Below, in pieces: positions 860 through 47,075 of a stretch of DNA of 64,000 nt (position 1 is its first letter; the number at the start of each line of letters is the position of its first letter). This DNA is from Acidobacteriota bacterium (GTDB lineage Bacteria; Acidobacteriota; JAQAZP01). The position numbers were made by a program, and so were the translations under genes. The stretch is from NCBI GenBank assembly GCA_032127265.1, contig JAQAZP010000103.1, positions 831 through 64,830 on the forward strand, in the 5' to 3' direction. The notes beneath the pieces are model-generated. The model made no database searches. It saw only the letters and a program-made list of their open reading frames with translations, and had not been told where the DNA came from.

Positions 860-3800
860 ATGAACTGGACAAGCAGAACAGGTAAACAGAAGTTGAGAAA
901 GGGTGACAGCGGCGTCTCGCTGGCTGAGATGCTGATCTCGCTCTTTCTTCTCTCGACCACGCTGATCATGATCGCCAACTACGTCGGCCTCTCCTTCACC
1001 ACCACCAAGAGTAACAAGGAGAAAGATTTCGCCACCCAGAAGGCGATCCAGATCGTCAATGAACTGCGGGCCTACGTGGAGAGCGGCAGCGAAACCCCGG
1101 CGTCGATGCTGGACAACTTCGATGACGGTGAGACCTTCAACACCATCCTCACTACCCAGCGCGGCGTGGTGGATCCCGACGATCCACTGAGTAAAAACGT
1201 TCTCGATTCCGGAAATAACTGGCACTACCTGCGTAATGTCCGGGTCACCGCCCTGCCCACCGAAAACCCGCGGGACCTGCGCGTCGTCAACATCAAACTC
1301 TACCGTGCCGAGGGCGGGGAAGCGCAGAAGGTTCTGGCCGACGTGACCACGGTGATCCGAACCTTTATCACCGACTACTTCCCACCCAGCCAGGTCTACG
1401 ACGTGTACTGCGTCGCCCTGGAGAACGTCCCCGACTGGTGGGTGCACATGTCAGCCCTGCGGCCGATGATAGAAAGCTCCTTCATCGACCTCCAGTCCCG
1501 CAACCCGGGCCTCGAGTTTCGCCTGCACTGGATCTCCCGCATGGGCTACGGACGGGACAAGCTCTACGCACCGTTCCTCAACCTGGCCGGCGGCCCGGAG
1601 GCCGCTGTGAACTGGACCTTTCACTACCCGGGCCTGATCCGCGTCTCGGACAACTTCCTCTACTACGACCCGATGACATTCCAGAGCCGGCTCAATGTGG
1701 ACGGCACGATGCAGAACGCCACGTCCTATGCCCTGGCCGACCAGTTCAATCACGCGGTCCGTTATCCCGAAGAACTGCGGATCAGGGCCGGACGACCCCA
1801 GGACACCGAGGTGAGCTACCGTGAACTGATCGAGCGGTTGAACAGTTCACCCGAGGAATTCGTCAACGCGATCATCATCAACCTCCACGGCGAACTGCTC
1901 CCCATCCCGCCGATCCGTAACTTCTCGGATGCAGCCAAGGACCCGGAAACCGACGGAACCAGCTTCGACAATTACTACAACGGGGGGAGCCGGCAGGGCA
2001 TCCGCGTGGTGACCCACCCGGAGAAGCTGGAATACCAGAACACGGATGATGTGACCCTGAGGGTTTATGCCTACGCGGACCGGCCGCTGAAACAGGACCC
2101 CCAGGCGAACTGTTTTTACAACGCTACCGGAAACGTGGACGCCGGAGACAACGTCAACATAATGGACGACATGATCGTCCTGCGTCTGCCGGGAATCGTC
2201 ATTAACGACACCTTCACCCAGGGGAATACCGGTGACCCTGACCTGTCGGTCAGCCTGATCCGCGGGGGGGCGGTGAGCTGGTGGTGCCATCCGGCCAACA
2301 ACGACCCCAATGCACCGCCCATCGACATGAACACGATGTACAACTATGTCAACATTCCGGCAAGCACGCTCAACGACCGGGAACTGACCTACTCTCCAGC
2401 CACCGACTGGATGTGTTTTCGGGTGTTCAATGTCCCGGACGATGGGGGTACACCGGAAGACGAGACTGCCGCCGTCATCTGCCTCTACAACACGCCGCTG
2501 ACCTGCCCGCAGGCAAGCGGCGCCTATGGCGCCCCCGCGGGCAATGCCAGCGGTCTGGATGTCAACGACCGGCTGTACGGCCTGGACTACATCCCCTGCC
2601 CGGTGCACAGCGATTTCATTCAGGACTTGACCGAGACATCCAACAATCCGAAGAACACGGCACGATGGATCATCACCCTCAAAAACCGGGTGATCCCCGA
2701 CAATGACAGGCTTACCGTCCAGACCCGGATCACCGACCGCGACGTGGACGTGACCAGCTGGAACCTGCTCGACGGTTCGGGCCTGGCCGTCAACCAGACC
2801 GGCGAATCGGACAACCATCCCTACAACCTCTCAGAGACCTACGCCTGGATCGGCAACGCCACCCTGCCGGCCACCGAACGTTACCAGTTGATCGGCGACC
2901 CCCGGCACAATCCGTATCTCGACGTCAAACTGCGCCACGGTTACAACTGGTATTGGATCGACAACGGGGCCATGCCGGGATACAGTGGGTTCGACCGGGC
3001 CGACTACGGCTGGAGTTCACACTATGTCGAAGTCGACTACCCGCGGGCCTGCAACCTGGTGCGCAGCGGCCTGCTGCAATCCGGCACCCTCTACACCTCG
3101 ATGACCGGTTACACCAATTACTTCATCGGTCTGGGCGGCGAAGTCGGGGCCGATGACGCCAATGGCTTTGAGGACGGCATCCCGGTAAACGGCCAACCCT
3201 ACCAGGGGTATGTGGGCAGCTACCACCGCAAGGACAAGCAGGACGGCACCCGGACCATCGAGGAGGCGGCAAACAGCGGTGACGCCAAGTGGGTCGGCCT
3301 GACCTGGCTGGGCGAGACATTTCCCGACACCGAATACCTCGCCAACTCGGTCTATCAGACCAACGGCAACCTCTCCTCGAGCCTGTTCTACCAGGTCAAA
3401 TGGAACGACCTTTCCCACTCGGCATTTGGTTGGTGCAACAAGGCGCGGACCAGGAAAACCGGCGTTCACGGGCCCGGGACCTTCTTCAATGCCAAGGGTG
3501 ACAGCAGCGGCCCGTTCAGCCATGCCTTCAACCAGGGTGCTTCGGGCACCCTGCAGCCCGAGGGCGAGGAGATGGCCGGCATCTTCCACTTCCCGCTGCC
3601 CACCAATTTTCCGGCGGCCCGGCCATTCAACCTCGATGCGCCGCCGCACCCTCCGGAATGGGACATGCCGGAGTACACCAACGTGCACAACACCAACCAG
3701 TTTCTCTCCGAGTACTACACCAATGCCACCGGAAAATACTCCAGCGCGCTGATCCAGATGCAGAGCGCAACCAATACGGAAATGGACCTGACTACCGATG

Positions 3801-10443: not shown

Positions 10444-12531
10444 TTGCTCCATGGTTCACAACCCTGCGATAATGAAACCATGGTCACCAAGGATGCCAGC
10501 TCGACTCCCCGGGACCGCGGCGTGATTCGCGACACCCTGGGCACCGTCTCCCAGGCCCTGGCCGGCTGTATCAGTTTCGAGGATTTTTTCGACGCCGTCC
10601 ACGACGCGCTCTCCCCTTTCATCCCCCATGACGCCATGGGAATCTACAACTACGACGCCCGCAAGCAGCAGTTCCGGCCGCTGATCATGGACATCCGGGA
10701 TGAGCTGCCCGAGGCCATCGAAAAGATCTACTCCCTGCCCTCGGACGATACGCTGAAGGCCCGGGCGATCCGCGAGAACCGCGCCTTCCGCATCGAAGAC
10801 ACCGCCCAAGCCGATTACGCCGAAGCGCCCCTGCTGGTGGAGATTGGCCTGCGCAGCCACATGGTGATCCCGCTGGTCAGCCGGGGCCGGCCCCTGGGGG
10901 TGCTTTACGCCGTACACCGCGATCCCGGGGTCTACGACGACTTCCACCTCGCCCTGCTCACCGAACTGGCCGCGCCGGTGGCCGTGGCCCTGGAGGAGGT
11001 GCGGGAGCTGACCACCAGCCGCGCCCTGCAGCAGGTGGGCGAGGTGATGGCCGCCACCCTGGACATCCCGGAACTGTTCCTGCTGGTCTCCGAGCGGCTC
11101 CAGCCGGTGCTGCCGCACACCATCGCCTGCATCTTCGCCGTGGATGAAGCCACGAGCGAGCTGGGCCGGACCCCGCTGGTCCGCGCGACGATCCCCGGGT
11201 TCCCGCTGCCGGAAAAGGAGTGCCGGGACCTGCCCCGGGAGATGGTCGACCAGGCTCTGGTGCGGGGAACCCCGGTGCTGATCCCCAGCCTGATGCTGTA
11301 CATCACCCGGCACGAGAGTTATGCCGGACTGATCGAGGCCGGGATCCAGTCCTGCATGGCCTGCCGTCTGGAGGTGGCCGGCCGCCCCTATGGTCTGCTC
11401 TTCATGGGCGACCGGCGCCACGAGGCCTATGCCCGCACCGACCTGGAAAACTTCCTCTGGGTCGGCCGCCAGCTGAGCCTGGCCGTGGCCCACTCCATCG
11501 CCTTCAAGGGGGTGGAGCAGTTGAGCCGCCAGTTGCAGGAGGAGAACATCTACCTCAAGGAGGAGGTCGCCGCGAAAAGCAATCTCGGCGAGATCATCAG
11601 TGCCAGCCCGGCCCTGCAGAATGTTCTGGAGCAGGCGGAGATGGTGGCCTCCACCGACATCACCGTGCTGATCACCGGCGAGACCGGCACCGGCAAGGAG
11701 CTGATCGCCCGGGCGATCCACGAGCTGGGGCCCCGGGCCGGGAAGTCGATGATCCGGGTCAACTGCGCCGCCCTGCCCCGGGACCTGATCGAGTCGGAGC
11801 TGTTCGGCCACGAGCGGGGCTCGTTCACCGGGGCCGAAAGACGGCACATCGGCCGTTTCGAACTGGCCCACGGCGGCACGCTCTTTCTCGACGAAGTGGG
11901 CGACATGCCGCTGGAGGCCCAGGCCCGGCTGCTCCGCGCGCTGCAGGAGGGGGAGTTCGAACGGGTGGGCGGGGAGAGCCTGATCCGGGTGGACGTGCGG
12001 GTGGTGGCGGCCACCAACCAGGACCTCCAGCGGGCGGTGAGCCAGGGCGACTTCCGTGAAGATCTCTACTACCGGCTCATGGTCTTCCCGATCCACATCC
12101 CGCCGCTGCGTGAGCGGGTGGAGGATATCGTCCCCCTGGCCCGCCACTTCGCCCTGCGCACCGCCGAACGGCTGAAGAAACCGGTGCGCCGGCTGACCCG
12201 GGAGAGCCAGAGCGAGATGCTCCGCTACTCCTGGCCGGGCAACGTCCGCGAGCTGGAGCACATGATCGAGCGGGGCATGATCCTGGCCAAAACAAGCGCC
12301 CTGGACCTGGTGCCGCTGATCAGGGCCGTAGCGCGGCTGAACATCCGCGGCGGCCGCCACTCCTTCCCCACCCTCGATGAGGCCGAGCGGGAGCACATCA
12401 TCTCCGCGCTGGAGGAAACAGGGTGGAAGGTGTCGGGCAAGGGGGGCGCCGCCGAGCTGCTCGACGTTCCACGCACCACCCTCCAGGCCCGGATGCGCAA
12501 GCTGGGGATCGGCCGCAACGGCCGGCGCTGA
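10444..12531 (+). CDS. sigma-54-dependent transcriptional activator with N-terminal GAF-type sensor region, no receiver domain
   Basis: AAA+ sigma-54 interaction domain ([29 protein letters not shown]-type loop), C-terminal Fis-type HTH, and an N-terminal region of about 370 aa resembling GAF. Confidence 0.9.
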
Positions 12532-12668: not shown

Positions 12669-13955
12669 ATGGCCGCAAAAGTCGGGGGCTCGAAGGCGCC
12701 CATATCGATCGTCATCATCCTGGTCATCATCCTGGCGGTGGCCGGGATCTTCTCCAAATACCTGGTGGAGACCAACAACGCCGGCTATATCAAGCTCCGG
12801 CAGATGCCGGTCACCGGAACTCTGGATATCTACTCCGATCCGGGGATGTTCGGCCAGTGGTTCGGCCTGGTCACCGAATACAAGCAGGCCGGTACCTATT
12901 CCTTTACTGACGAGGCGCTCCCCGCGGATCAGGTGGAGGACAGCGCCGTATCCGCGGCCATTGAGGTGCGCTTCAACGACGGCGGCATCGCCAGGCTTGC
13001 CGGCAACGCCCGTTTCGAGCTGCCGCTGACACCGGCGGCGATGACCCAGATCCACAACAAGTTCCGCAGCTACGACCATATCTCCCAGTCGCTGGTCAAG
13101 CCGGCCATCGCCGAGGCGCTGATCCTCACCGCCTCCTTGATGAGCGCCGAGGAGAGTTATTCAGGCCGCCGGGCCGAGTTCTCCCAACTGGCCTGGGACC
13201 AGGTGCTCAACGGAGTCTACATCACCGAATCGGAGGAGCGGGAGACCATCGACCCGGCCACCGGCGAGAAGAAAAACAAACGGATCGTGCACATCAAGTA
13301 CTCCGCCGACGGGCAGCCGGTACGCAAGCAGAACTCGCTGGCCCTCTACGAGATCCGGATCACCCAGTTCTTCCTCGACAAGGACTTCGGTTACGAGCAT
13401 GGCGTGCTGCAGCAGATCAGCAACCAGCGGGACGCGATGATGAAGACCGTGGCGGCCAAGGCCGAGGCGGAGAAGTCCCAGCAGGACCGGCTCACCGCCG
13501 AAGCCCAGGGGCAGGCCAACGTGATGACCGCCAAGTACGAAGCCGAGGTGGAAAAGGAACGGGCCGTGGTGGAGGCACGCAAGCGCAAGGAAGTGGCCGA
13601 GACCGAGGCCTCCCAGCGGCTGGAGGTGGCCAAGCTGGACAAGACGGCGGCCGAGGAATACAAGCTGATGCAGTTGCTCCGCGCCGAGGGAGACTCGGAA
13701 TACAAGCGGCGGGTGATGCAGGCCGACGGCGCCCTGGCCCAGAAGCTGGAGGCCTGGACGGACGTGAACAAGCGCTACGCCCAGGCCATCGAGAACTACA
13801 AGGGTAACTGGGTGCCCAACCTGGTGATGGGAGGGTCGGGCACCGGCAGCACCATGGGCTCGCAGGACCTGATCAACCTGCTCACGGCTAAAACGGCCCA
13901 GGAACTGGCCCTCGACCTGAGCCTGCCCAAGGGCAACACCCGCCCCCCGCAGTAG
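12669..13955 (+). CDS. SPFH/band-7 (flotillin/HflK-like) membrane protein
   Basis: N-terminal TM helix, a central domain, then a long Ala/Glu/Lys-rich coiled coil typical of SPFH proteins. Good RBS (gaggaggagg) before the ATG. Confidence 0.6.
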   Translation: MAAKVGGSKAPISIVIILVIILAVAGIFSKYLVETNNAGYIKLRQMPVTGTLDIYSDPGMFGQWFGLVTEYKQAGTYSFTDEALPADQVEDSAVSAAIEVRFNDGGIARLAGNARFELPLTPAAMTQIHNKFRSYDHISQSLVKPAIAEALILTASLMSAEESYSGRRAEFSQLAWDQVLNGVYITESEERETIDPATGEKKNKRIVHIKYSADGQPVRKQNSLALYEIRITQFFLDKDFGYEHGVLQQISNQRDAMMKTVAAKAEAEKSQQDRLTAEAQGQANVMTAKYEAEVEKERAVVEARKRKEVAETEASQRLEVAKLDKTAAEEYKLMQLLRAEGDSEYKRRVMQADGALAQKLEAWTDVNKRYAQAIENYKGNWVPNLVMGGSGTGSTMGSQDLINLLTAKTAQELALDLSLPKGNTRPPQ

Positions 13956-13986: not shown

Positions 13987-14030
13987 GGGACGTCGCAACC
14001 GCGATGTCCCCCTTTTCTTTTCTTCTCCAA
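13987..14030 (+). terminator. rho-independent terminator
   Basis: gggggacgtcgc-aacc-gcgatgtccccc followed by TTTTCTTTTC, immediately after the SPFH gene. Confidence 0.5.
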
Positions 14031-14083
14031 GTTTGTTCAGAAATTGAAGTGGCTTCAGAACCTCAGCTGTGGCTCGATAACAA

Positions 14084-14151
14084 GGCGCCGGCCGACGAGA
14101 AAGCGGAGCATACTTTTGTGGGATGTGACGCTTCTCGAGGAGGCCGGCAAC
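14084..14151. repeat. copy A of a roughly 70-bp palindromic intergenic repeat (REP/MITE-like)
   Basis: GGCGCCGGCCGACGAGAAAGCGGAGCATACTTTTGTGGGATGTGACGCTTCTCGAGGAGGCCGGCAAC. About 90% identical to the reverse complement of 25639-25707. Contains an internal hairpin between GCCGGC flanks. Confidence 0.6.
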
Positions 14152-14189
14152 GCCGTTATCGGGCCGCAAGCTGGGGTTATGGAGCCGCT

Positions 14190-14687
14190 TCACTCGACTT
14201 CGGCGAAGATTTCCTTGAGCATGGCGTCCATCGCCGCGGGGTCTTCCACCAGCCCGTCCACCCGTGCTTCGTCCTCGGCCCCGAAGTCGGTGAGCGCCTT
14301 GAAGCTGCGGACAAAATCCTCGACGCAGTGCAGAACCTTGGCCTGGGACTCGAAGGTACCCGGGGCGCCCACATCCCCCTGGTCCACCTGCTCGACGATC
14401 CGGTTGTAGGCCACGATCAGGCGGTAGACGTCGCGGCGCCGCTCGCCGAACCAGGGGACGGCCAGCAGGCGGTCCACGGTGTCCTTGGCCTCGGCCCGGC
14501 CGTTCTGGGCAAAGGAGTCGATCATCCGGAAGTAGGTCGACTGCAGCCGCTGAAGGTCGTGGAAGCGGTGGCTGCGATAGAGAGCCAGCAGGAGGTAGAA
14601 GACGTCGGAAAGAAACCGCACGGCGTCGCTGTTCTCCCGGACCCAGGGTATCCGGAACGCCTGGCGCCAGACAGAATAGGGAACCAT
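14190..14687 (-). CDS. hypothetical protein (165 aa)
   Basis: Protein-like composition on the minus strand. The overlapping plus-strand ORF is Gly/Val/His/Pro-rich and looks antisense. No recognisable domain. Confidence 0.4.
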   Translation of the reverse strand: MVPYSVWRQAFRIPWVRENSDAVRFLSDVFYLLLALYRSHRFHDLQRLQSTYFRMIDSFAQNGRAEAKDTVDRLLAVPWFGERRRDVYRLIVAYNRIVEQVDQGDVGAPGTFESQAKVLHCVEDFVRSFKALTDFGAEDEARVDGLVEDPAAMDAMLKEIFAEVE

Positions 14688-14702
14688 GAAACCGCCTCCG
14701 CT

Positions 14703-14936
14703 CTAAAAAGAATGTATTGACCCGCAGTCGGGACATTCCCAAGTCAGGTTGTTGCAGGTCAGGCCCCAGGAGTTTTCATCCATGCAGACCTGGCAGATCA
14801 TGAAGCCGCAATCAGCGCAGTGCCAGCAGAACAGGCCCTCGGCGCTGCAGACCGAACAGGTCCGCTCCCGCATCCGCCTGCGCCCTTTCCGAGGTTCTCC
14901 GGTCATCTTGAATTTCAGATGTGTGCCTATGTCCAA
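14703..14936 (-). CDS. small Cys-rich zinc-ribbon protein (77 aa)
   Basis: Five CxxC pairs (CSVC, CWHC, CADC, CQVC, CPDC) in 50 aa. Lies 46 nt downstream of carB on the same strand. Confidence 0.45.
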   Translation of the reverse strand: MDIGTHLKFKMTGEPRKGRRRMRERTCSVCSAEGLFCWHCADCGFMICQVCMDENSWGLTCNNLTWECPDCGSIHSF

Positions 14937-18183: not shown

Positions 18184-19268
18184 TTGCCGCCCCCCTTGCT
18201 GCCGAGCATGGCGACGAACTCGTCGAAGAGAAAATCGGTGTCCACCGGGCCGGGCCGGGCTTCGGGGTGGAACTGCACGCTGCGCAGCGGCTTGTCCCGG
18301 TGCCTGATCCCCTCGTTGGTGCCGTCGTTGGCGTTGAAGAACCAGGGCTGCCAGCCCTCGGGCAGGCTCCGGTCGTCCACCGCATAGCCATGGTTCTGGG
18401 AGGTGATGTGACAGCGCCGGCTGCCAACCCGCATACAGGGCTGGTTCTGGCCCCGATGGCCGAATTTCAGTTTGTAGGTGTCGGCCCCGGCGGCCAGAGC
18501 CATGATCTGGTTCCCGAGGCAGATCCCGAACAGCGGGATGCTGCCGTCCTCGATCAGTTTCCGGACGTTCTCCACCGTGGGCCCGCACAGCTTGGGGTCA
18601 CCGGGGCCGTTGGAGATCACCACCCCATCCACCCGCTCACTGCTCAAATCGTAATCCCAGGGGACGCGCAGCACGCTGACCCCCCGCTGCAGCAGGCTGC
18701 GAATGATACCGGCCTTGGCGCCGCAGTCGATCAGTGCCACGCGCTGCCGGCCGCTGCCGATAATCGTCGGCTCGGTCACGCTGACCAACTGCACCAATGC
18801 ATCGTATTCCGGCTCCGGCGCCGGACTCTCCCGGTCGGAGAGGATCACCCGCCCCTTCATCGTGCCCCGGTGGCGCAGCCGCTTGGTCAGCGCCCGGGTG
18901 TCCACCCCGGTGATCCCCGGAATCCCCTCCCGGTCGAGCCAGGCGTGCAGGCTCTCGGCGGCCCGCCAGTGGGAATAGTGACGGGAGTATTCGGCCACTA
19001 CCAGGGCCCGGGCGTGAATCCGCTCCGATTCGAAGGGGCTGCGGGCCAGGTCGGCCGTCCCATTGATGCGGCTTTGGGGTACGCCGTAGTTGCCCACCAG
19101 AGGGTAGGTCAGGACCAGAATCTGGCCGGAATAGGACGGGTCGGTGAGGCTCTCCGGGTAGCCGACCATGCCGGTGTTGAAGACCACTTCACCAGAGGCG
19201 GGGAAGCAACCGCCAAACAGTTCCCCGGCCCACTCGGACCCGTCTTCTAGGAGAAGTGTCGCTCTCAA
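18180..19268 (-). CDS. carA: carbamoyl-phosphate synthase small subunit (glutamine amidotransferase)
   Basis: ...ATLLLEDGSEWAGELFG...GEVVFNTGMVGYPESLTDPSYSGQILVLTYP, class I GATase C-terminus. Start placed at TTG 19268, preceded by GGAAAGG; the in-frame ATG at 19343 is an alternative. Confidence 0.88.
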   Translation of the reverse strand: MRATLLLEDGSEWAGELFGGCFPASGEVVFNTGMVGYPESLTDPSYSGQILVLTYPLVGNYGVPQSRINGTADLARSPFESERIHARALVVAEYSRHYSHWRAAESLHAWLDREGIPGITGVDTRALTKRLRHRGTMKGRVILSDRESPAPEPEYDALVQLVSVTEPTIIGSGRQRVALIDCGAKAGIIRSLLQRGVSVLRVPWDYDLSSERVDGVVISNGPGDPKLCGPTVENVRKLIEDGSIPLFGICLGNQIMALAAGADTYKLKFGHRGQNQPCMRVGSRRCHITSQNHGYAVDDRSLPEGWQPWFFNANDGTNEGIRHRDKPLRSVQFHPEARPGPVDTDFLFDEFVAMLGSKGGGK

Positions 19269-19724
19269 TACGATCCTTTCCCGGTGATGTGGCTCGACTG
19301 CCGCACCTCGCCGGTTGAGCTTCGTGCGGCCACCGGCGACCATGGAGTACAGAATGCAGCGAAAATAGCAGAGGGGTCAACAGGCTGTCAATCTGATCAC
19401 CTCCAGCCGCACCGGGCCTGTCCTCCCTGGGAACTAAAGCGATCCGAACCGTCCACTTTTGTATCCACCTCTGTAAACCAGGGTTGACTGTGACGGGTTC
19501 GGAAACCCGCGGCCACCCATCTGGACATCCGGACCTCTGTCGCCTCAGGGACGCATCGGACCAGTAAAATATTTAAAATCTATAACTTGCACCCAAAGTC
19601 AAGGTCGTGATTGGCCCATATCCCCCTCTGATGATCCCTGGAAGATAGTGTAAAATCCTGCAGCGAACCGTAAAAACGCCGGCATGAAGACATCAAAAAT
19701 GAGAGTGAAATGCCCATATTTCGG

Positions 19725-19750
19725 CACATTGCCCGTATTAGGGCAATGTG
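19725..19750. promoter_or_regulatory. perfect 10-bp inverted repeat (cacattgccc-N6-gggcaatgtg), candidate upstream activator site
   Basis: Read directly from the sequence. Lies about 95-120 bp upstream of the sigma-54 -24/-12 element at 19845. Confidence 0.35.
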
Positions 19751-19844
19751 AAATTTATTAATCCACGGTCAGATGGGATTAGAAATAAGACTAACGCATT
19801 GTAAACAATCGACTTGTAAATTATTTTCAAATTCTTCTGAACGC

Positions 19845-19859
19845 TGGCACATTGTTTGC
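19845..19859 (+). promoter_or_regulatory. sigma-54 (RpoN) promoter, -24/-12 elements
   Basis: cTGGCACattgtTTGCg is an exact TGGCAC-N5-TTGC match reading rightward. It sits in an AT-rich intergenic region with a palindrome roughly 100 bp upstream. Confidence 0.55.
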
Positions 19860-19929
19860 GTATAGATAGTGACGTGCAGCGGCATAAGGCCGGATGAAAA
19901 CTGAATAGGTTGTTGGACCATTCAACGCT

Positions 19930-20337
19930 GTGAGCAATATCCAAGTGCCTGATGAAACGGAACTGGAACTTGCCGGGCAGCTTGAACGAGCTTTAGAGCA
20001 GCGCTGGCAGGAATTGTCAGCACGCCGTTATTCCTCACCGTGCCGGGCGGTGGCCGACCTCACCCGGGATGGCGAGGGTATCCTTGAGGCGGCCGGTCTG
20101 GAAGGGGTTCCACCCTTCCCCGGATGTCTCAAAATCGGATGCGGCAACGGCCGCTCGAATTCGGATCTCCGCCTTTACAGCTGCACGGCGCTGACGAGGG
20201 AGCACGGAGATCAGTCGCTGGTCATCCACCTCAAGGTCGAACTGGCCCAGACGGGTGGTGATCAGGAGTTGGCGCTCAAAGAGATGCTCGTTGGCTGCCC
20301 TGAAGTTCGGGTGGTCTCTCCCGGCACAACCGGTTGA
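19930..20337 (+). CDS. hypothetical protein (135 aa, GTG start), candidate sigma-54-dependent gene
   Basis: ORF begins about 60 nt after the predicted sigma-54 transcription start. No clear SD and no recognisable domain, so coding status is uncertain. Confidence 0.25.
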   Translation: MSNIQVPDETELELAGQLERALEQRWQELSARRYSSPCRAVADLTRDGEGILEAAGLEGVPPFPGCLKIGCGNGRSNSDLRLYSCTALTREHGDQSLVIHLKVELAQTGGDQELALKEMLVGCPEVRVVSPGTTG

Positions 20338-20737
20338 GATAGCCCAGTAAAGAAGGACATAACCTCCTCCTTGCGAGGGGTTCTGCTAGCCAGATGCAAT
20401 CCCAAAAAGAGGATTGCCGATTGAAGGGTTTTTTTCCCCAGCCGCTGAAGCGGCTTAATTAATAGATTTGCCGGCTCTTCGGAGCCGGCCTGCCATCATA
20501 AGATGTCCCCCCGGCAGGTCGAATCATGACCAGCCAACGTTCCTAACGAAACTACGCCCCGGTCGGGTCTGAATACCGACCGGGGCCCCTCCAACTCTCT
20601 CGAACCTTTCCCCCTTTGCTTCCAAAGTCCAACTGAACTACTATTCTTGCGCATGCTCCGCTGACGATGCGTCCAGGTATTCCGCGCCCGGCGGCCGGAA
20701 TGACCGCGGCTTCCGCCCCGGCGGAGAGGATGGGACC

Positions 20738-21838
20738 ATGGTAATGAACCTGCTGCAAGTGGACACGGAAATCCGGTGGGGCGGCGGCCAGCAGCAGGTG
20801 GCCCACCTCTGTGAAGGCCTGGCCGGCAAAGGACACCGCGTCGTCCTGGTCTGCCACCGCGATGGAATTCTCCGCCACCGGGTGGAAAGCGCCGCGGTTC
20901 GCGTCCTCCCCCTCGCCTCCTTTGGCGAGGTCGATCCCCGGGGTGTGTTCGGCCTGGCCCGGATCATCCGCAGCCAGCGCTTTGACCTGATGCACATGCA
21001 CTCCTCCCGGGCGCACACCATGGGTGTCGTGGCCGGCGCACTGACCCGGTTCCGGCCCCGCGTGGTCTCCAGGCGGTTCAACCACTCTCCGCGGCGGGAC
21101 CCTTTCAACCGCTGGAAATACGGCAGCGGCATCGACCGGGTGGTGGCCATTTCCCGGGCGGTGCAGCAGTCGCTGATCGATGCGGGATTCGATTCCGCTG
21201 ACATTGACCTGGTACCCAGCGGTATCGTTCCACCAGATCGGGTGGCCGGGGCCCGGGTCGCTGTATTCGAAGAATTCAATTTGCCCCCCGAGGCCCGGTT
21301 GGCGATCTGCGTGGCCAACCTGGTGGAGATCAAGGGCCACAGGACACTGATCGAAGCGGTGCGGCTGCTTCGAGGGGAATGGCCCGGCCTTCGCGTCCTG
21401 TTCGCCGGAGACGGCCCCCTGCGACGAAACCTGGAGGCACTGAGCCATGATGCCGGTGTCGAGGATCACATCCTCTTTGCCGGATTCCGCACCGACATTG
21501 ACCGTCTGCTCTCCGCCGCCGACCTGGCCGTCTGCCCGTCGCTCACCGAAGGTCTGGGGCTCTCGATCCTCGATGCTCTGGCCATGGAACTGCCGGTGGC
21601 CGCCTCGGAAACCGGCGGAATCCCCGAAATCGTCCGGCACGACGAAACCGGCTTGCTGGTTCCTCCGGGGGAACCAGATCCGCTGGCCAAAGCGGTGGAG
21701 AAGCTGCTCTCCAATCCCGAGGAGTCGGCCCGCCTGGGCCGGAACGGCCGGCGGATGGTGCTCGAGAAATTCAGTGTCCAGGCGATGGTGGACGGGACCG
21801 AAGCGGTATATCACCGACTGCTGGAAGCGGCCTCATAA
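20738..21838 (+). CDS. glycosyltransferase family 4 (GT-B fold)
   Basis: GT4 N-terminal GxGG region and C-terminal E-x7-E-like segment (CPSLTEGLGLSILDALAMELPVAASETGGIPEIV). Confidence 0.85.
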   Translation: MVMNLLQVDTEIRWGGGQQQVAHLCEGLAGKGHRVVLVCHRDGILRHRVESAAVRVLPLASFGEVDPRGVFGLARIIRSQRFDLMHMHSSRAHTMGVVAGALTRFRPRVVSRRFNHSPRRDPFNRWKYGSGIDRVVAISRAVQQSLIDAGFDSADIDLVPSGIVPPDRVAGARVAVFEEFNLPPEARLAICVANLVEIKGHRTLIEAVRLLRGEWPGLRVLFAGDGPLRRNLEALSHDAGVEDHILFAGFRTDIDRLLSAADLAVCPSLTEGLGLSILDALAMELPVAASETGGIPEIVRHDETGLLVPPGEPDPLAKAVEKLLSNPEESARLGRNGRRMVLEKFSVQAMVDGTEAVYHRLLEAAS

Positions 21839-31465: not shown

Positions 31466-32548
31466 GTGTCGAAGCTCAAAGACCAGATCGCCCCCGGCGT
31501 GGTCACCGGGAAGGATGTGCAGCAGATATTTTCAGTGGCCAAGGCGAACAAATTTGCGCTTCCAGCGGTTAACGTCGTCGGCACCAACTCGGTGAATGCC
31601 GTGCTGGAAACCGCCGCGGCGGTGGACTCGCCGGTGATGGTCCAGTTCTCCCACTCCGGCGCGGCCTTCTTCGCCGGCAAGGGAATGCCCGGTGAGGGGC
31701 ACGCCGTGGCCGTGGCCGGAGCCATCTCCGGCGCCATCCATGTCCACCAGGTCTCCTCGGCTTACGGCATCCCGGTGATCGTGCACACCGACCACGCCGC
31801 GCGGAAGCTGCTGCCCTGGATCGACGCCCTGCTGGCCGCCGGTGAGGATTTCCACAAGGCCCACGGCATCCCCCTCTACAGCTCGCACATGATCGACCTC
31901 TCCAACGAACCGATCAAGGAGAACATCGAGACCTGCAAGCCGTATCTCGAGCGGATGAGCAAGCTGGGAATGACCCTGGAGATCGAACTGGGCGTCACCG
32001 GCGGTGAGGAGGACGGGGTGGACAACACCGACGTGGACAGCGCCCGCCTCTACACCCAGCCCGAGGAAGTGGCTTACGCCTACGAGCAGTTGAGCGCAAT
32101 CAGCGACGCCTTCACCGTGGCCGCCGCCTTCGGCAATGTCCACGGGGTCTACAAGCCGGGCAACGTCCAGCTGCGGCCGGTGATCCTGCACAACACCCAG
32201 AAGTTCATCCAGGAGAAGTTCGGCACCGGCGAACTGCCGGTGAACTTCGTCTTCCACGGCGGCTCGGGTTCGAGCACCGAGGAGATCCGCGAGGCGATCT
32301 CCTACGGTGCAATCAAGATGAACCTCGACACCGACATGCAGTGGGCCTTCTGGGAGGGGGTGCACAACTACTACCGCGAGAAGAAGGACTACCTCCAGGG
32401 CCAGATCGGCAACCCCGAAGGGGAGGACAAGCCGAACAAGAAGCACTACGACCCGCGCGCCTGGCTCAGACAGGGCGAACTCTCCTTCATTGACCGGCTG
32501 ACCAGGGCCTTCGAGGACCTCAACTGCATCGGCGCCATGGCGCTCTGA
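31466..32548 (+). CDS. fbaA: fructose-bisphosphate aldolase class II
   Basis: 360 aa, class II FBA motifs (FALPAVNVVGTNS, HTDHA, GNVHG). Confidence 0.92.
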   Translation: MSKLKDQIAPGVVTGKDVQQIFSVAKANKFALPAVNVVGTNSVNAVLETAAAVDSPVMVQFSHSGAAFFAGKGMPGEGHAVAVAGAISGAIHVHQVSSAYGIPVIVHTDHAARKLLPWIDALLAAGEDFHKAHGIPLYSSHMIDLSNEPIKENIETCKPYLERMSKLGMTLEIELGVTGGEEDGVDNTDVDSARLYTQPEEVAYAYEQLSAISDAFTVAAAFGNVHGVYKPGNVQLRPVILHNTQKFIQEKFGTGELPVNFVFHGGSGSSTEEIREAISYGAIKMNLDTDMQWAFWEGVHNYYREKKDYLQGQIGNPEGEDKPNKKHYDPRAWLRQGELSFIDRLTRAFEDLNCIGAMAL

Positions 32549-46585: not shown

Positions 46586-46594
46586 GTTCTTTCC

Positions 46595-46634
46595 TCCATC
46601 GATGCATATCGGTATTACATTACATCCATCGATG
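46595..46634. promoter_or_regulatory. 9-bp inverted repeat (ccatcgatg-N21-catcgatgg) immediately upstream of vapB, candidate operator
   Basis: Read from the sequence. TA loci are typically autoregulated by the antitoxin binding palindromes in their promoter. Confidence 0.35.
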
Positions 46635-47075
46635 GCGATTCGTCAAGTAATATTTTTTTGGCCACCAATTAATTATCTGGATATCCGTATATTCACATCC
46701 TCAAGTTATTTTATAACTCGTTCCAGGCTCTGATTGGCTTGGTTCGATGATGGCATGAGACCTGCATAACTAGCTGAAGAATCTAGTAGATATTACCCTT
46801 GCTGGGCGATAATGACAAGTGTTTGCGTAATGTACAATGGCTCATGCGTCCAGATAAGCCCGGCAGGGCGTTGATATGTGGAAGGTAAGGGCGAACATGA
46901 GATCAGCACGGTTTGGTTATCCTGATAGCAATGATGTCTGTATATGCACGAAATCTCGTGCTTATCTGGAAAGGATGCTGGCTGAAACCAGCTTATCCAC
47001 AAGTGATGAGGTGTAATCGCGTCCGAAGAGCAGGAAGGCCTGGCGGGGTTTGCCTCCTGGCTCCGTGAGCGGTGG

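Follow-up and report, generated by a model that had tools for sequence, protein, structure and literature searches.

The closest described systems to the locus reported here are the classical bEBP promoters, such as NtrC/glnAp2, NifA/nif and GlrR/glmY, whose enhancers are usually found 80-150 bp upstream (PMC4987338). Two systems that encode an RNA also bear comparison. In enterobacteria, GlnZ is an sRNA derived from the 3'UTR of the NtrC/sigma-54-controlled glnA mRNA (PMC9731577; bioRxiv 10.1101/2022.04.01.486790), and an RNA of this type inherits sigma-54 regulation because it is located after the stop codon of a bEBP-activated gene. The Salmonella RNA-repair operon rsr-yrlBA-rtcBA depends on RtcR and sigma-54 and has Y-RNA genes embedded in it (PMC4987338, PMC7790460).

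In the DNA analysed here (the window, the whole stretch of 64 kb), the region between carAB and a glycosyltransferase gene (GT4) is likely to hold a lineage-specific, enhancer-dependent sigma-54 unit of uncultured Acidobacteriota. The sigma-54 promoter and its activator sites probably drive a small protein gene (ORF135) and then a folded RNA of ~235 nt. What was observed at the locus is sequence conservation, fixed spacing, a coding signature and RNA covariation. Dependence on sigma-54, binding of an activator, the position of the transcript start, joint transcription of the RNA with ORF135 and any role of either product are inferred. The coordinates of the features are collected in Table 1.

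Table 1. Features of the carAB-GT4 region and the candidate activator gene (positions in the window).
Feature	Position	Strand	Remarks
GAF-AAA+-HTH enhancer-binding protein (EBP)	10444-12531	+	Pfam Sigma54_activat 6.9e-73, GAF, HTH_8
carAB sigma-70-type promoter, TTGACA-18-TATTTT	19362-19391	-	promoter scan, 10/12 matches
UAS-1, putative distal enhancer site TGCCCATATTTCGGCA	19711-19726		centre ~-152 from predicted start
UAS-2, putative proximal enhancer site TGCCCGTATTAGGGCA	19730-19745		centre ~-133 from predicted start
AT-rich spacer	19746-19836		GC 0.29; length kept, sequence not
Predicted sigma-54 promoter	19837-19859	+	invariant CTGAACG(C/G), then -24 TGGCAC, 5 nt, -12 TTGC
Predicted leader, 59 nt	19871-19929	+	start near 19871 predicted from the -12 position
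ORF135	19930-20337	+	starts at GTG; acidic 135-aa product with three invariant cysteines and no known family
Structured RNA, ~235 nt, eight helices	20361-20592	+	covariation, folding z-score, conservation
H1	20362-20369/20375-20381	+	
H2	20382-20385/20391-20394	+	
H3	20396-20403/20409-20417	+	
HA	20440-20445/20450-20455	+	
HB	20470-20477/20482-20489	+	
HC1	20494-20497/20502-20505	+	
HC2	20513-20520/20528-20535	+	
HD	20556-20566/20576-20586	+	terminal 11-bp hairpin with conserved loop GUCUGAAUA
GT4 sigma-70-like promoter, TTGCTT-17-TACTAT	20616-20644	+	conserved where GT4 follows

The initial annotation described this region as a 1.4-kb intergenic gap that is far less GC-rich than its surroundings. 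The difference in composition is as described (GC 0.40-0.44 over 19600-19999 compared with ~0.65 in the flanks). The length is not, as the divergent stretch that is truly non-coding spans only 661 bp (19269-19929). Within the supposed 1.4-kb gap are a sigma-70 promoter for carA, the sigma-54 unit and, for the glycosyltransferase, a sigma-70-like promoter of its own. The genes carA, carB and GT4 were identified by Pfam. The most likely start of carA is the TTG at 19268, with GGAAAGGA before the start codon, and the block ATTGACAG.CTGTTCA.CCCTCTGCTATTTTCGCTGCAAT at the carAB promoter is kept in all orthologous loci. GT4 starts at 20738 or 20744, and the length of its leader varies among the loci from 9 to ~90 nt.

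The promoter resembles the classical bEBP promoters in its GG/GC -24/-12 elements and their exact spacing. As had been noted from the sequence, a rightward TGGCAC-N5-TTGC is present, composed of TGGCAC at 19845-19850, the spacer ATTGT at 19851-19855 and TTGC at 19856-19859, with the GG and GC dinucleotides exactly 10 bp apart. It scores 10/11 against TGGCAC-N5-TTGCW, the miss being a G at the W position (-11, where the consensus has A/T), and the base 3' of TGGCAC is A where the consensus has G. The exact motif occurs once in the window with both strands counted and is the only strong sigma-54 promoter candidate there. A single exact match in one sequence is weakly significant, as 16 of 100 dinucleotide shuffles of the window contain at least one, and with one mismatch allowed 6 matches were observed vs 4.85 expected.

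The observation gains its significance from the orthologous loci, in which the elements and their spacing are conserved. The -24/-12 element is kept in every locus whose contig reaches that far, in the form TGGCA(C/T)-N5-TTGC with the spacers ATTGT, ATAGT, ACGGT, ATTGC and GTGGG; TGGCA, TTGC and the 5-nt distance between them are invariant and the spacer bases drift. In the distant locus L017 the spacer is GTGGG vs ATTGT in the window, given as a change at four of the five bases. This pattern of variable and invariant positions supports the assignment, as it mirrors the sigma-54 consensus. All orthologous loci come from uncultured MAGs or metagenome contigs of a narrow clade, and limited divergence accounts for part of the conservation; the adjacent spacers have nonetheless diverged to 3-41% identity. 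Conservation of the promoter and the repeat in orthologous regions had been named beforehand as a refuting test, and both are kept, the repeat in its core only.

The enhancer had been placed in a 10-bp inverted repeat, cacattgccc (19725-19734) and gggcaatgtg (19741-19750) separated by a 6-nt gap. The repeat is present and perfect, but what is conserved is a tandem pair of imperfect 16-bp palindromes, TGCCC-N6-GGGCA (TGCCCATAT-type dyads). UAS-2 is the core of the repeat, and the outer caca/tgtg of its arms is specific to the window. UAS-1 was found in every lineage whose contig extends there (10 listed and L014), and the two sites are always 19 bp apart from start to start. Nine lineages have UAS-2 at 114-116 bp from TGGCA; L017, the distant one, has it at 127 bp, longer by roughly one helical turn. 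With the -24 GG as the reference, UAS-2 is centred 108 bp and UAS-1 127 bp upstream. The canonical enhancer distance claimed initially is supported, and the 114-116 bp from -24 is kept across a spacer with an identity of only 17-41% between lineages. The placement is close to the 80-150 bp range, with the centre of UAS-1, at ~-152 from the predicted start, just beyond it. By site number, symmetry and distance the two dyads correspond to a bEBP enhancer and are putative binding sites, and their helical phasing with the promoter appears to be conserved. As in the classical systems, two dyad sites lie ~110-130 bp upstream of -24, the DNA between is phase-constrained and an EBP gene is present in the genome. 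NtrC, NifA and NorR are not known to recognise TGCCC-N6-GGGCA.

No further TGCCC-N6-GGGCA with the conserved AT-rich core was found elsewhere in the window; an exact match at 31686 is GC-cored and was judged to be due to chance. The initial annotation had also pointed to GGCACATTG as shared by the palindrome and the promoter. This recurrence is coincidental because it is not conserved: in L011 the enhancer contains GGCACATTG and the promoter contains GGCATACGG.

Between the dyads and the promoter, nucleotide identity of the AT-rich spacer to the orthologues is 0.16-0.41, and GC ranges from 0.26 to 0.47 across all lineages. The suggestion of AT-rich, bendable, IHF-like DNA therefore holds for the AT-richness, which is conserved, and fails for IHF: the best match to an IHF-like site (WATCAANNNNTTR) in the window is 7/9, a value equalled by 469 of 500 shuffles, and among 11 loci there was no match at a conserved position. 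In this the locus differs from some classical bEBP promoters, where IHF is frequent and not obligatory. Taken as a whole, the proposed sigma-54 module with an upstream enhancer is supported by conservation in its promoter and enhancer placement, and has to be revised in its single palindrome and its IHF site.

It is also conceivable that something other than sigma-54 keeps the -24/-12 element and the dyads, which might be repressor or activator operators for carAB, with ORF135 transcribed by sigma-70. The carAB promoters of other bacteria are under complex multi-factor control, an exact -24/-12 match is not rare in shuffled sequence, and the flanks CTGAACG and GTATA.ATAGTG.CGTGCAACGG are invariant too, beyond the needs of sigma-54. 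We nevertheless regard this as very improbable. The carA -35 box (19391) is more than 320 bp from the dyads and more than 450 bp from -24/-12, the invariant and variable positions of the element fit the sigma-54 consensus exactly, and the promoter scan found no sigma-70 -35/-10 pair upstream of ORF135 on the + strand. A dyad-to--24 spacing that preserves helical phase has no rationale under such an arrangement.

The predicted leader is conserved at the sequence level (e.g. GAAAACTGAATAGG and TGGAGCATTCAA). RNAalifold gave no convincing fold for it (-8 kcal/mol, 1 covarying pair). The leader and the region from -12 to +20 are conserved beyond what a sigma-54 promoter alone requires, and another factor or function may overlap them.

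ORF135 had been called weak. This judgement does not stand, as there are 15 homologues at 66-99% identity with conserved synteny, and the variable columns number 71, 48 and 106 at codon positions 1, 2 and 3. The homologues are 133-143 aa long and share 38 invariant residues. ORF135 is considered coding because of the third-position excess, the preserved length and the invariant residues and, judged from these comparisons, is a real lineage-specific gene. Its product is presumably cytoplasmic. No Pfam or NCBIfam match was obtained for it, and a profile search of 1.84 billion proteins returned only 4 real cluster representatives; one further hit, P0018 (a Calx-beta repeat protein), was a spurious match.

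The initial annotation proposed that the transcript might be a non-coding RNA or a long leader for the glycosyltransferase gene. A conserved RNA is indeed predicted, downstream of ORF135 and outside the stretch to which that annotation referred, and the suggestion was partly right by chance. Its nucleotide identity to the orthologues is 0.84-0.93, at or above that of each flanking CDS. In an alignment of 13 sequences 98.1% of the cells pair and 14 pairs show double changes, compared with 3.4 in shuffles (0/500 reach 14) and 0-4 in slid controls. Folding gives a z-score of -5.1, and the G-U pairs are compatible with the + strand only. The covariation, the z-score and conservation above that of coding sequences argue that the folded RNA is real. 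Each locus carries a single copy. The sequence after HD is CCCCUCC and contains no U-run, which leaves the 3' end of the transcript uncertain.

With Rfam 15 the RNA had no match at the gathering thresholds. The best permissive scores were P15 at 19.9 bits (threshold 70) and CC3664 at 18 (threshold 60); these and PtaRNA1, from searches of the whole window and of narrow slices, were rejected as sub-threshold, and P15 and CC3664 reflect GC hairpins of a generic kind. No tRNA or tmRNA was predicted by ARAGORN. A small ORF within the RNA (AUG 20395) was dismissed, since neither its frame nor its length is kept among the loci and the substitutions are of the compensatory kind that maintains RNA pairing. 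A metagenome-wide pattern scan for the terminal hairpin returned 27 stretches, 21 of them chance matches in coding DNA and 6 true, and detected no more distant RNA homologues. All 6 true matches directly follow ORF135 and come from the same clade.

The folded region could act in cis, either as a riboswitch or leader of GT4 or as a terminator/insulator stack between two units. It is directly upstream of GT4 in most loci and ends in a strong GC hairpin, and RNAalifold proposes a long-range AAGGG-CCUUU pairing that reaches the GT4 promoter region. This is improbable in view of one lineage (L012, L028 and L044) that keeps ORF135 and the entire RNA and lacks the glycosyltransferase and TTGCTT-17-TACTAT, so that there is no obligatory cis link. 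In these three loci a convergent ORF lies ~20 nt beyond the RNA; in L012 the promoter is lost together with GT4. Where GT4 is present, the conserved sigma-70-like promoter separates it from the RNA. No riboswitch family was matched in Rfam, and a terminator has no need of eight helices over ~235 nt, of single-stranded segments that are invariant, or of a 9-nt loop conserved in sequence on a covarying stem. The suggested glycosyltransferase leader is likewise set aside, because GT4 has its own promoter and L012, L028 and L044 lack the gene.

It is less easily dismissed, although still rather unlikely, that the sigma-54 promoter drives ORF135 only and that the RNA is transcribed separately, as a gene with a promoter in the 3' end of the ORF, such as TTGAGA-N18-CATAAC at 20333-20362. 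The window, L001, L002, L007, L012 and L015 have a possible sigma-70-like pair spanning the ORF135 stop, GGACATAACC immediately 5' of H1 is nearly invariant, and the RNA is conserved far more than ORF135, as an autonomous RNA gene would be. Against this, the -35-like TTGAGA overlaps the TGA stop, and the candidate is lost in L010 (CTGAGC), L011 and L013. A start 7 nt past CATAAC would sit within H1, a helix supported by compensatory changes in L014 (CCUCCCC/GGGGGG). The scan found no sigma-70 promoter between ORF135 and the RNA on the + strand, and in L011 and L013 ORF135 reads through into GGACATAA. We assign the RNA to the ORF135 unit because H1 starts 24 nt 3' of the stop codon, the true scan matches all follow ORF135 and the RNA is kept without GT4. 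Its position is of the 3'UTR type, on the same strand, directly after the stop and without a conserved promoter of its own.

In this position the RNA is like GlnZ, which also directly follows the stop codon of a gene activated, here by prediction, by a bEBP. It is unrelated to GlnZ in sequence and has no Rfam match; it is ~235 nt, multi-branched and conserved more than its ORF, and it lacks the U-rich terminator tail that is usual for Hfq-dependent sRNAs. The locus is like rsr-yrlBA-rtcBA in that a predicted sigma-54/EBP-dependent unit encodes a protein and a structured RNA; in Salmonella the products form an RNP. In contrast to that operon, ORF135 is not Rsr, RtcA or RtcB by Pfam and NCBIfam, no Y RNA or other Rfam family was matched, the acidic ORF135 product is untypical of an RNA-binding protein, and the EBP found here carries GAF domains and not CARF. 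Compared with the classical bEBP promoters, the regulated genes here are a protein and an RNA without assigned function. The regulatory logic is canonical, and the expressed protein and RNA are new.

In the proposed mechanism, an enhancer-binding protein would bind the two tandem 16-bp dyads near -152 and -133, and the fixed-length AT-rich spacer would allow it to loop to RNA polymerase-sigma-54 at 19845-19859. ATP hydrolysis by the activator would then open the promoter, with transcription starting near 19871. The predicted transcript comprises the 59-nt leader, the 135-aa ORF and the ~235-nt multi-hairpin RNA directly after the stop; the RNA would most likely be made as the 3' part of the ORF135 mRNA and processing could afterwards release it as a stable RNA. 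carAB and the glycosyltransferase would be transcribed separately, each from its own sigma-70-type promoter.

The only EBP in the window is encoded at 10444-12531 and has a GSFTGA loop, the sole such motif there. That this protein binds the TGCCC-N6-GGGCA dyads is a tentative proposal. It has no competing EBP within the 64 kb and the promoter at 19845 is the one strong candidate target, the -24/-12 element is absent before the gene downstream of the EBP, and the EBP is syntenic in L021 and L022, where it has the same relative position. This co-location carries little weight because the whole neighbourhood is syntenic in close relatives. A distance of 7.4 kb that includes carAB and other genes separates the EBP gene from ORF135, no TGCCC-N6-GGGCA site is found near the EBP gene, and NCBIfam gave FhlA/NorR/NifA-like matches at sub-threshold scores only. 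Acidobacteriota also typically encode many EBPs, which counts against this one as the activator. No ORF with an RpoN box was found within the window, and we infer the presence of rpoN in the genome only from the encoded EBP.

Acidobacteriota are abundant in soils and sediments and mostly uncultured. Experimental work on their regulation is, to our knowledge, very scarce, and a literature search for sigma-54 control in the phylum returned nothing. The locus offers a phylogenetically supported sigma-54 promoter and enhancer with a candidate activator sequence, TGCCC-N6-GGGCA, with which the other members of the activator's regulon can be sought in MAGs. Because expression would be tied to one activator, the inducing signal might be found through the GAF domains, if that activator is the neighbouring EBP. 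The locus also adds two new objects, a small protein family without known relatives and a structured RNA without an Rfam match, the latter conserved at or above the level of neighbouring housekeeping genes, which usually signals an important function. A tentative possibility is that the RNA represents a new trans-acting or protein-partnered family restricted to one Acidobacteriota clade and controlled by sigma-54 and an EBP together with a new cysteine-bearing small protein. CUGAAUA is invariant in both the mRNA leader and the HD loop and could be a shared binding site. If this is true, the shared site would link RNA and protein to each other and to the expression of both, as in an autoregulatory RNP or a titration circuit.

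The initial annotation proposed a sigma-54 promoter in front of ORF135, and TGGCAC-N5-TTGC is present there on the forward strand. The exact motif occurs once in 64 kb and at least once in 16 of 100 dinucleotide-preserving shuffles, one-mismatch matches were seen six times with 4.85 expected, and a promoter match in a single sequence is by itself weak evidence. The sequence CTGAACG(C/G)-TGGCA(C/T)-N5-TTGC-GTATA is present in every orthologous locus that reaches far enough upstream, with both recognition elements and the 5-nt spacing unchanged and the spacer bases varying (ATTGT, ATAGT, ACGGT, ATTGC, and GTGGG in the distant contig L017). The promoter block is 76-97% identical to the window and the surrounding non-coding DNA 3-41%, a pattern that would be expected for a sigma-54 promoter. 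A promoter scan found no sigma-70 -35/-10 pair on the forward strand in front of ORF135, and no strong -24/-12 element other than the one at 19845 occurs in the window. A sigma-54-like element, TGGCATgagacCTGCA (46751-46766, forward strand, 9/11 in the motif scan), lies in a second AT-rich gap (46590-46900) without long ORFs and may be another sigma-54 promoter.

The perfect 10-bp inverted repeat reported at 19725-19750 (cacattgccc-N6-gggcaatgtg) is present, but its outer four bases are window-specific and the conserved unit differs. Orthologous loci keep two imperfect dyads, UAS-1 (distal) and UAS-2 (proximal), which are best conserved in the left half and AT-rich core (TGCCCATAT) and always 19 bp apart from start to start. 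The distance from the start of UAS-2 to TGGCA is 114-116 bp in nine lineages, across intervening DNA that is 17-41% identical, and 127 bp in L017, approximately one helical turn longer. This near-fixed distance across diverged DNA, with one added turn in L017, suggests an activator site facing the polymerase. Relative to the -24 GG, the dyads are centred 108 and 127 bp upstream, which corresponds to ~-133 and ~-152 when counted from the predicted start. These positions are near the 80-150 bp typical of enhancers for bacterial enhancer-binding proteins (bEBPs) (PMC4987338), and a canonical distance had already been noted for the inverted repeat. The AT-richness was also confirmed, as the GC content is 0.40-0.44 over 19600-19999 and ~0.65 on either side, and the enhancer-promoter spacer is AT-rich in all lineages (GC 0.26-0.47). 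The suggested IHF-like bend site was not borne out: a match as good as the best one in the window (7/9) occurred in 469 of 500 shuffles, and the top matches to the IHF consensus differ in position and strand between lineages. The recurrence of GGCACATTG in the repeat and the promoter is not kept in orthologues. Promoter and enhancer-dyad core are both kept, and the comparative evidence supports the core idea of a sigma-54 module, with several details wrong.

Coordinates of the annotated and predicted features of the locus
Feature	Position	Strand	Remarks
GAF-AAA+-HTH EBP gene	10444-12531		GSFTGA loop; only EBP in the window
carB, carA		-	flank of the divergent region
carAB sigma-70 promoter, TTGACA-18-TATTTT	19362-19391	-	conserved
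UAS-1, TGCCC-N6-GGGCA	19711-19726		16-bp imperfect dyad; conserved in orthologous loci
UAS-2, TGCCC-N6-GGGCA	19730-19745		16-bp imperfect dyad; conserved in orthologous loci
Predicted -24/-12 element	TGGCAC 19845-19850, 5 nt, TTGC 19856-19859	+	direct sequence reading
ORF135	19930-20337	+	135 aa
GT4 promoter-like block, TTGCTT-17-TACTAT	20616-20644	+	sigma-70-like; conserved

What was described as a 1.4-kb intergenic region contains the conserved ORF135 and a conserved RNA. ORF135 had been regarded as weak and is a real gene, with a third-position excess, conserved length and 15 homologues (66-99% identity). Variable columns at codon positions 1/2/3 number 71/48/106 in 12 orthologues, and the orthologues are 133-143 aa long with 38 invariant residues, including three cysteines. 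The homologue contigs share a gene order of carB-carA leftward, ORF135 and the glycosyltransferase gene GT4 rightward, and folC-like and accD leftward. When 1.84 billion representative proteins were searched with a profile, P0016 (L017) and P0017 (L018) were recovered as further, more distant orthologues, and there were no other real relatives, so the family has a narrow distribution. An in-frame TAG just upstream sets the start at GTG 19930, possibly GTG 19945; in the orthologous locus L011, which lacks this TAG, ORF135 begins further upstream at an ATG. Searches with ORF135 gave no family, no solved relative and no confident fold match, and its AF2 model (pLDDT 71) predicts that three helices at the N-terminus pack against a sheet of four strands. 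The GC3 of ORF135 is 0.65 compared to 0.86 for carA and 0.78 for GT4, and this, along with the AT-rich DNA upstream, may point to acquisition of the unit or to different constraints on it. In L017, the most distant orthologous contig, which was assembled from long reads, the carA call is 467 aa long (2116-3519), and accD and the folC-like gene seem to be either fused or split; these anomalies look like assembly frameshift errors, and coordinates from L017 should therefore be used with caution.

The 400 nt between the ORF135 stop codon and GT4 are strongly conserved. Over 20361-20592, orthologues have an identity of 0.84-0.93 with the window, at or above that of every nearby coding sequence (ORF135 0.71-0.92, carA 0.83-0.92, GT4 0.75-0.89), and the substitutions have no 3-nt periodicity (21, 28, 22). 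A hand-written structure of eight hairpins was evaluated on 13 distinct sequences, two distant lineages included: 98.1% of cells pair, and 14 pairs show double-sided changes compared to 3.4 in shuffles (0/500 reaching 14) and 0-4 when partners were slid by 1-3 columns. The fold of the window RNA is better than that of shuffled sequences by 5.1 standard deviations, and the G-U pairs are compatible with the forward strand only. The terminal 11-bp hairpin has a covarying stem and a conserved 9-nt loop, (G/A)UCUGAAU(A/G). Only the main clade has helices H1-H2 and the conserved form of H3, and the core from GAUUG (~20420) to the terminal hairpin is common to all three lineages. There is one copy per locus; no Rfam family matched at any threshold tried, and ARAGORN found no tRNA or tmRNA in the region.

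In its minimum-free-energy fold, the window RNA has GAGGGG (20376-20381) paired with the CCCCUC just after the terminal hairpin (20588-20593), in place of H1 (CCUCCUC/GAGGGG). The RNA may have alternative conformers; no covariation was found for this long-range pairing. The 5' arm of H1 (ACCUCCU) has exactly the anti-Shine-Dalgarno sequence, and GAGGGG resembles a Shine-Dalgarno sequence. Additionally, four copies of CTGAA(C/T), all within invariant blocks, lie on the forward strand: immediately 5' of the -24 element (19837), in the leader (19901), in the terminal-hairpin loop (20569) and in the GT4 promoter spacer (20633). CUGAAUA is common to the leader (19902-19908) and the loop (20569-20575), which may be coincidental or may mark a protein site common to both.

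The transcript had been proposed to be a non-coding RNA or a long glycosyltransferase leader. A conserved RNA is present, but the leader reading fails: the L012/L028/L044 lineage has no GT4, with a convergent ORF ending ~20 nt after the hairpin, and fully retains the RNA while TTGCTT-17-TACTAT is lost. This block thus appears to be a dedicated sigma-70 promoter of GT4. The GT4 leader varies in length from ~90 nt in the window down to ~9 nt in L011, where GT4 is almost leaderless, and the conserved GT4 start is probably ATG 20744 (MNLLQVD), not 20738. The RNA starts 24 nt past the ORF135 stop codon, ORF135 of L011 and L013 ends within the conserved GGACATAA, and all six true hits of a metagenome-wide terminal-hairpin scan lie directly behind an ORF135 homologue. 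This evidence points to the ORF135 unit. A separate internal promoter for the RNA is possible, as TTGAGA-N18-CATAAC spans the ORF135 stop codon; however, it is unconserved in three lineages and its start would fall inside H1, so co-transcription of the RNA with ORF135 from the predicted sigma-54 promoter is favoured.

It is possible, though doubtful, that the GAF-EBP is the activator that binds the dyads. Its gene is syntenic in two other lineages, which carries limited weight because these relatives keep the entire surrounding region in synteny; no dyad was found near the gene, and an NCBIfam search gave only sub-threshold FhlA/NorR/NifA-like matches. Downstream on the forward strand lie ORFs of 428 aa (12669-13955) and 238 aa (14004-14720) with no match in Pfam or NCBIfam; the former is syntenic in contigs L021 (442 aa) and L022 (428 aa) and has no -24/-12 element before it. 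On the carAB side, a second conserved block (19440-19487; ACCGTCCACT.T.GT.T.CAC..CTGTAAACC...GTTG) lies ~50-100 bp further upstream of the carAB promoter. In some lineages it includes a CACTATAGTG-type dyad, and it is a possible operator for control of carAB by arginine or pyrimidines.

The layout is a textbook match to bEBP/sigma-54 promoters with tandem upstream sites, and the defining features of promoter and enhancer that can be tested in silico were found except the IHF site. GlnZ, which is released by cleavage from the 3'UTR of the glnA mRNA, itself under NtrC control (PMC9731577), and the RtcR-dependent rsr-yrlBA-rtcBA operon with its embedded Y RNAs (PMC4987338, PMC7790460) are likewise sigma-54-controlled units that also yield non-coding RNA, as predicted here. 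The RNA belongs to neither family and has no Rfam-level similarity to them; it has no U-tailed terminator, and no Ro or Rtc proteins lie beside it. The regulatory mechanism is of an already known kind, and what is new at this locus is the protein and the RNA predicted to be regulated, and the putative activator recognition sequence.
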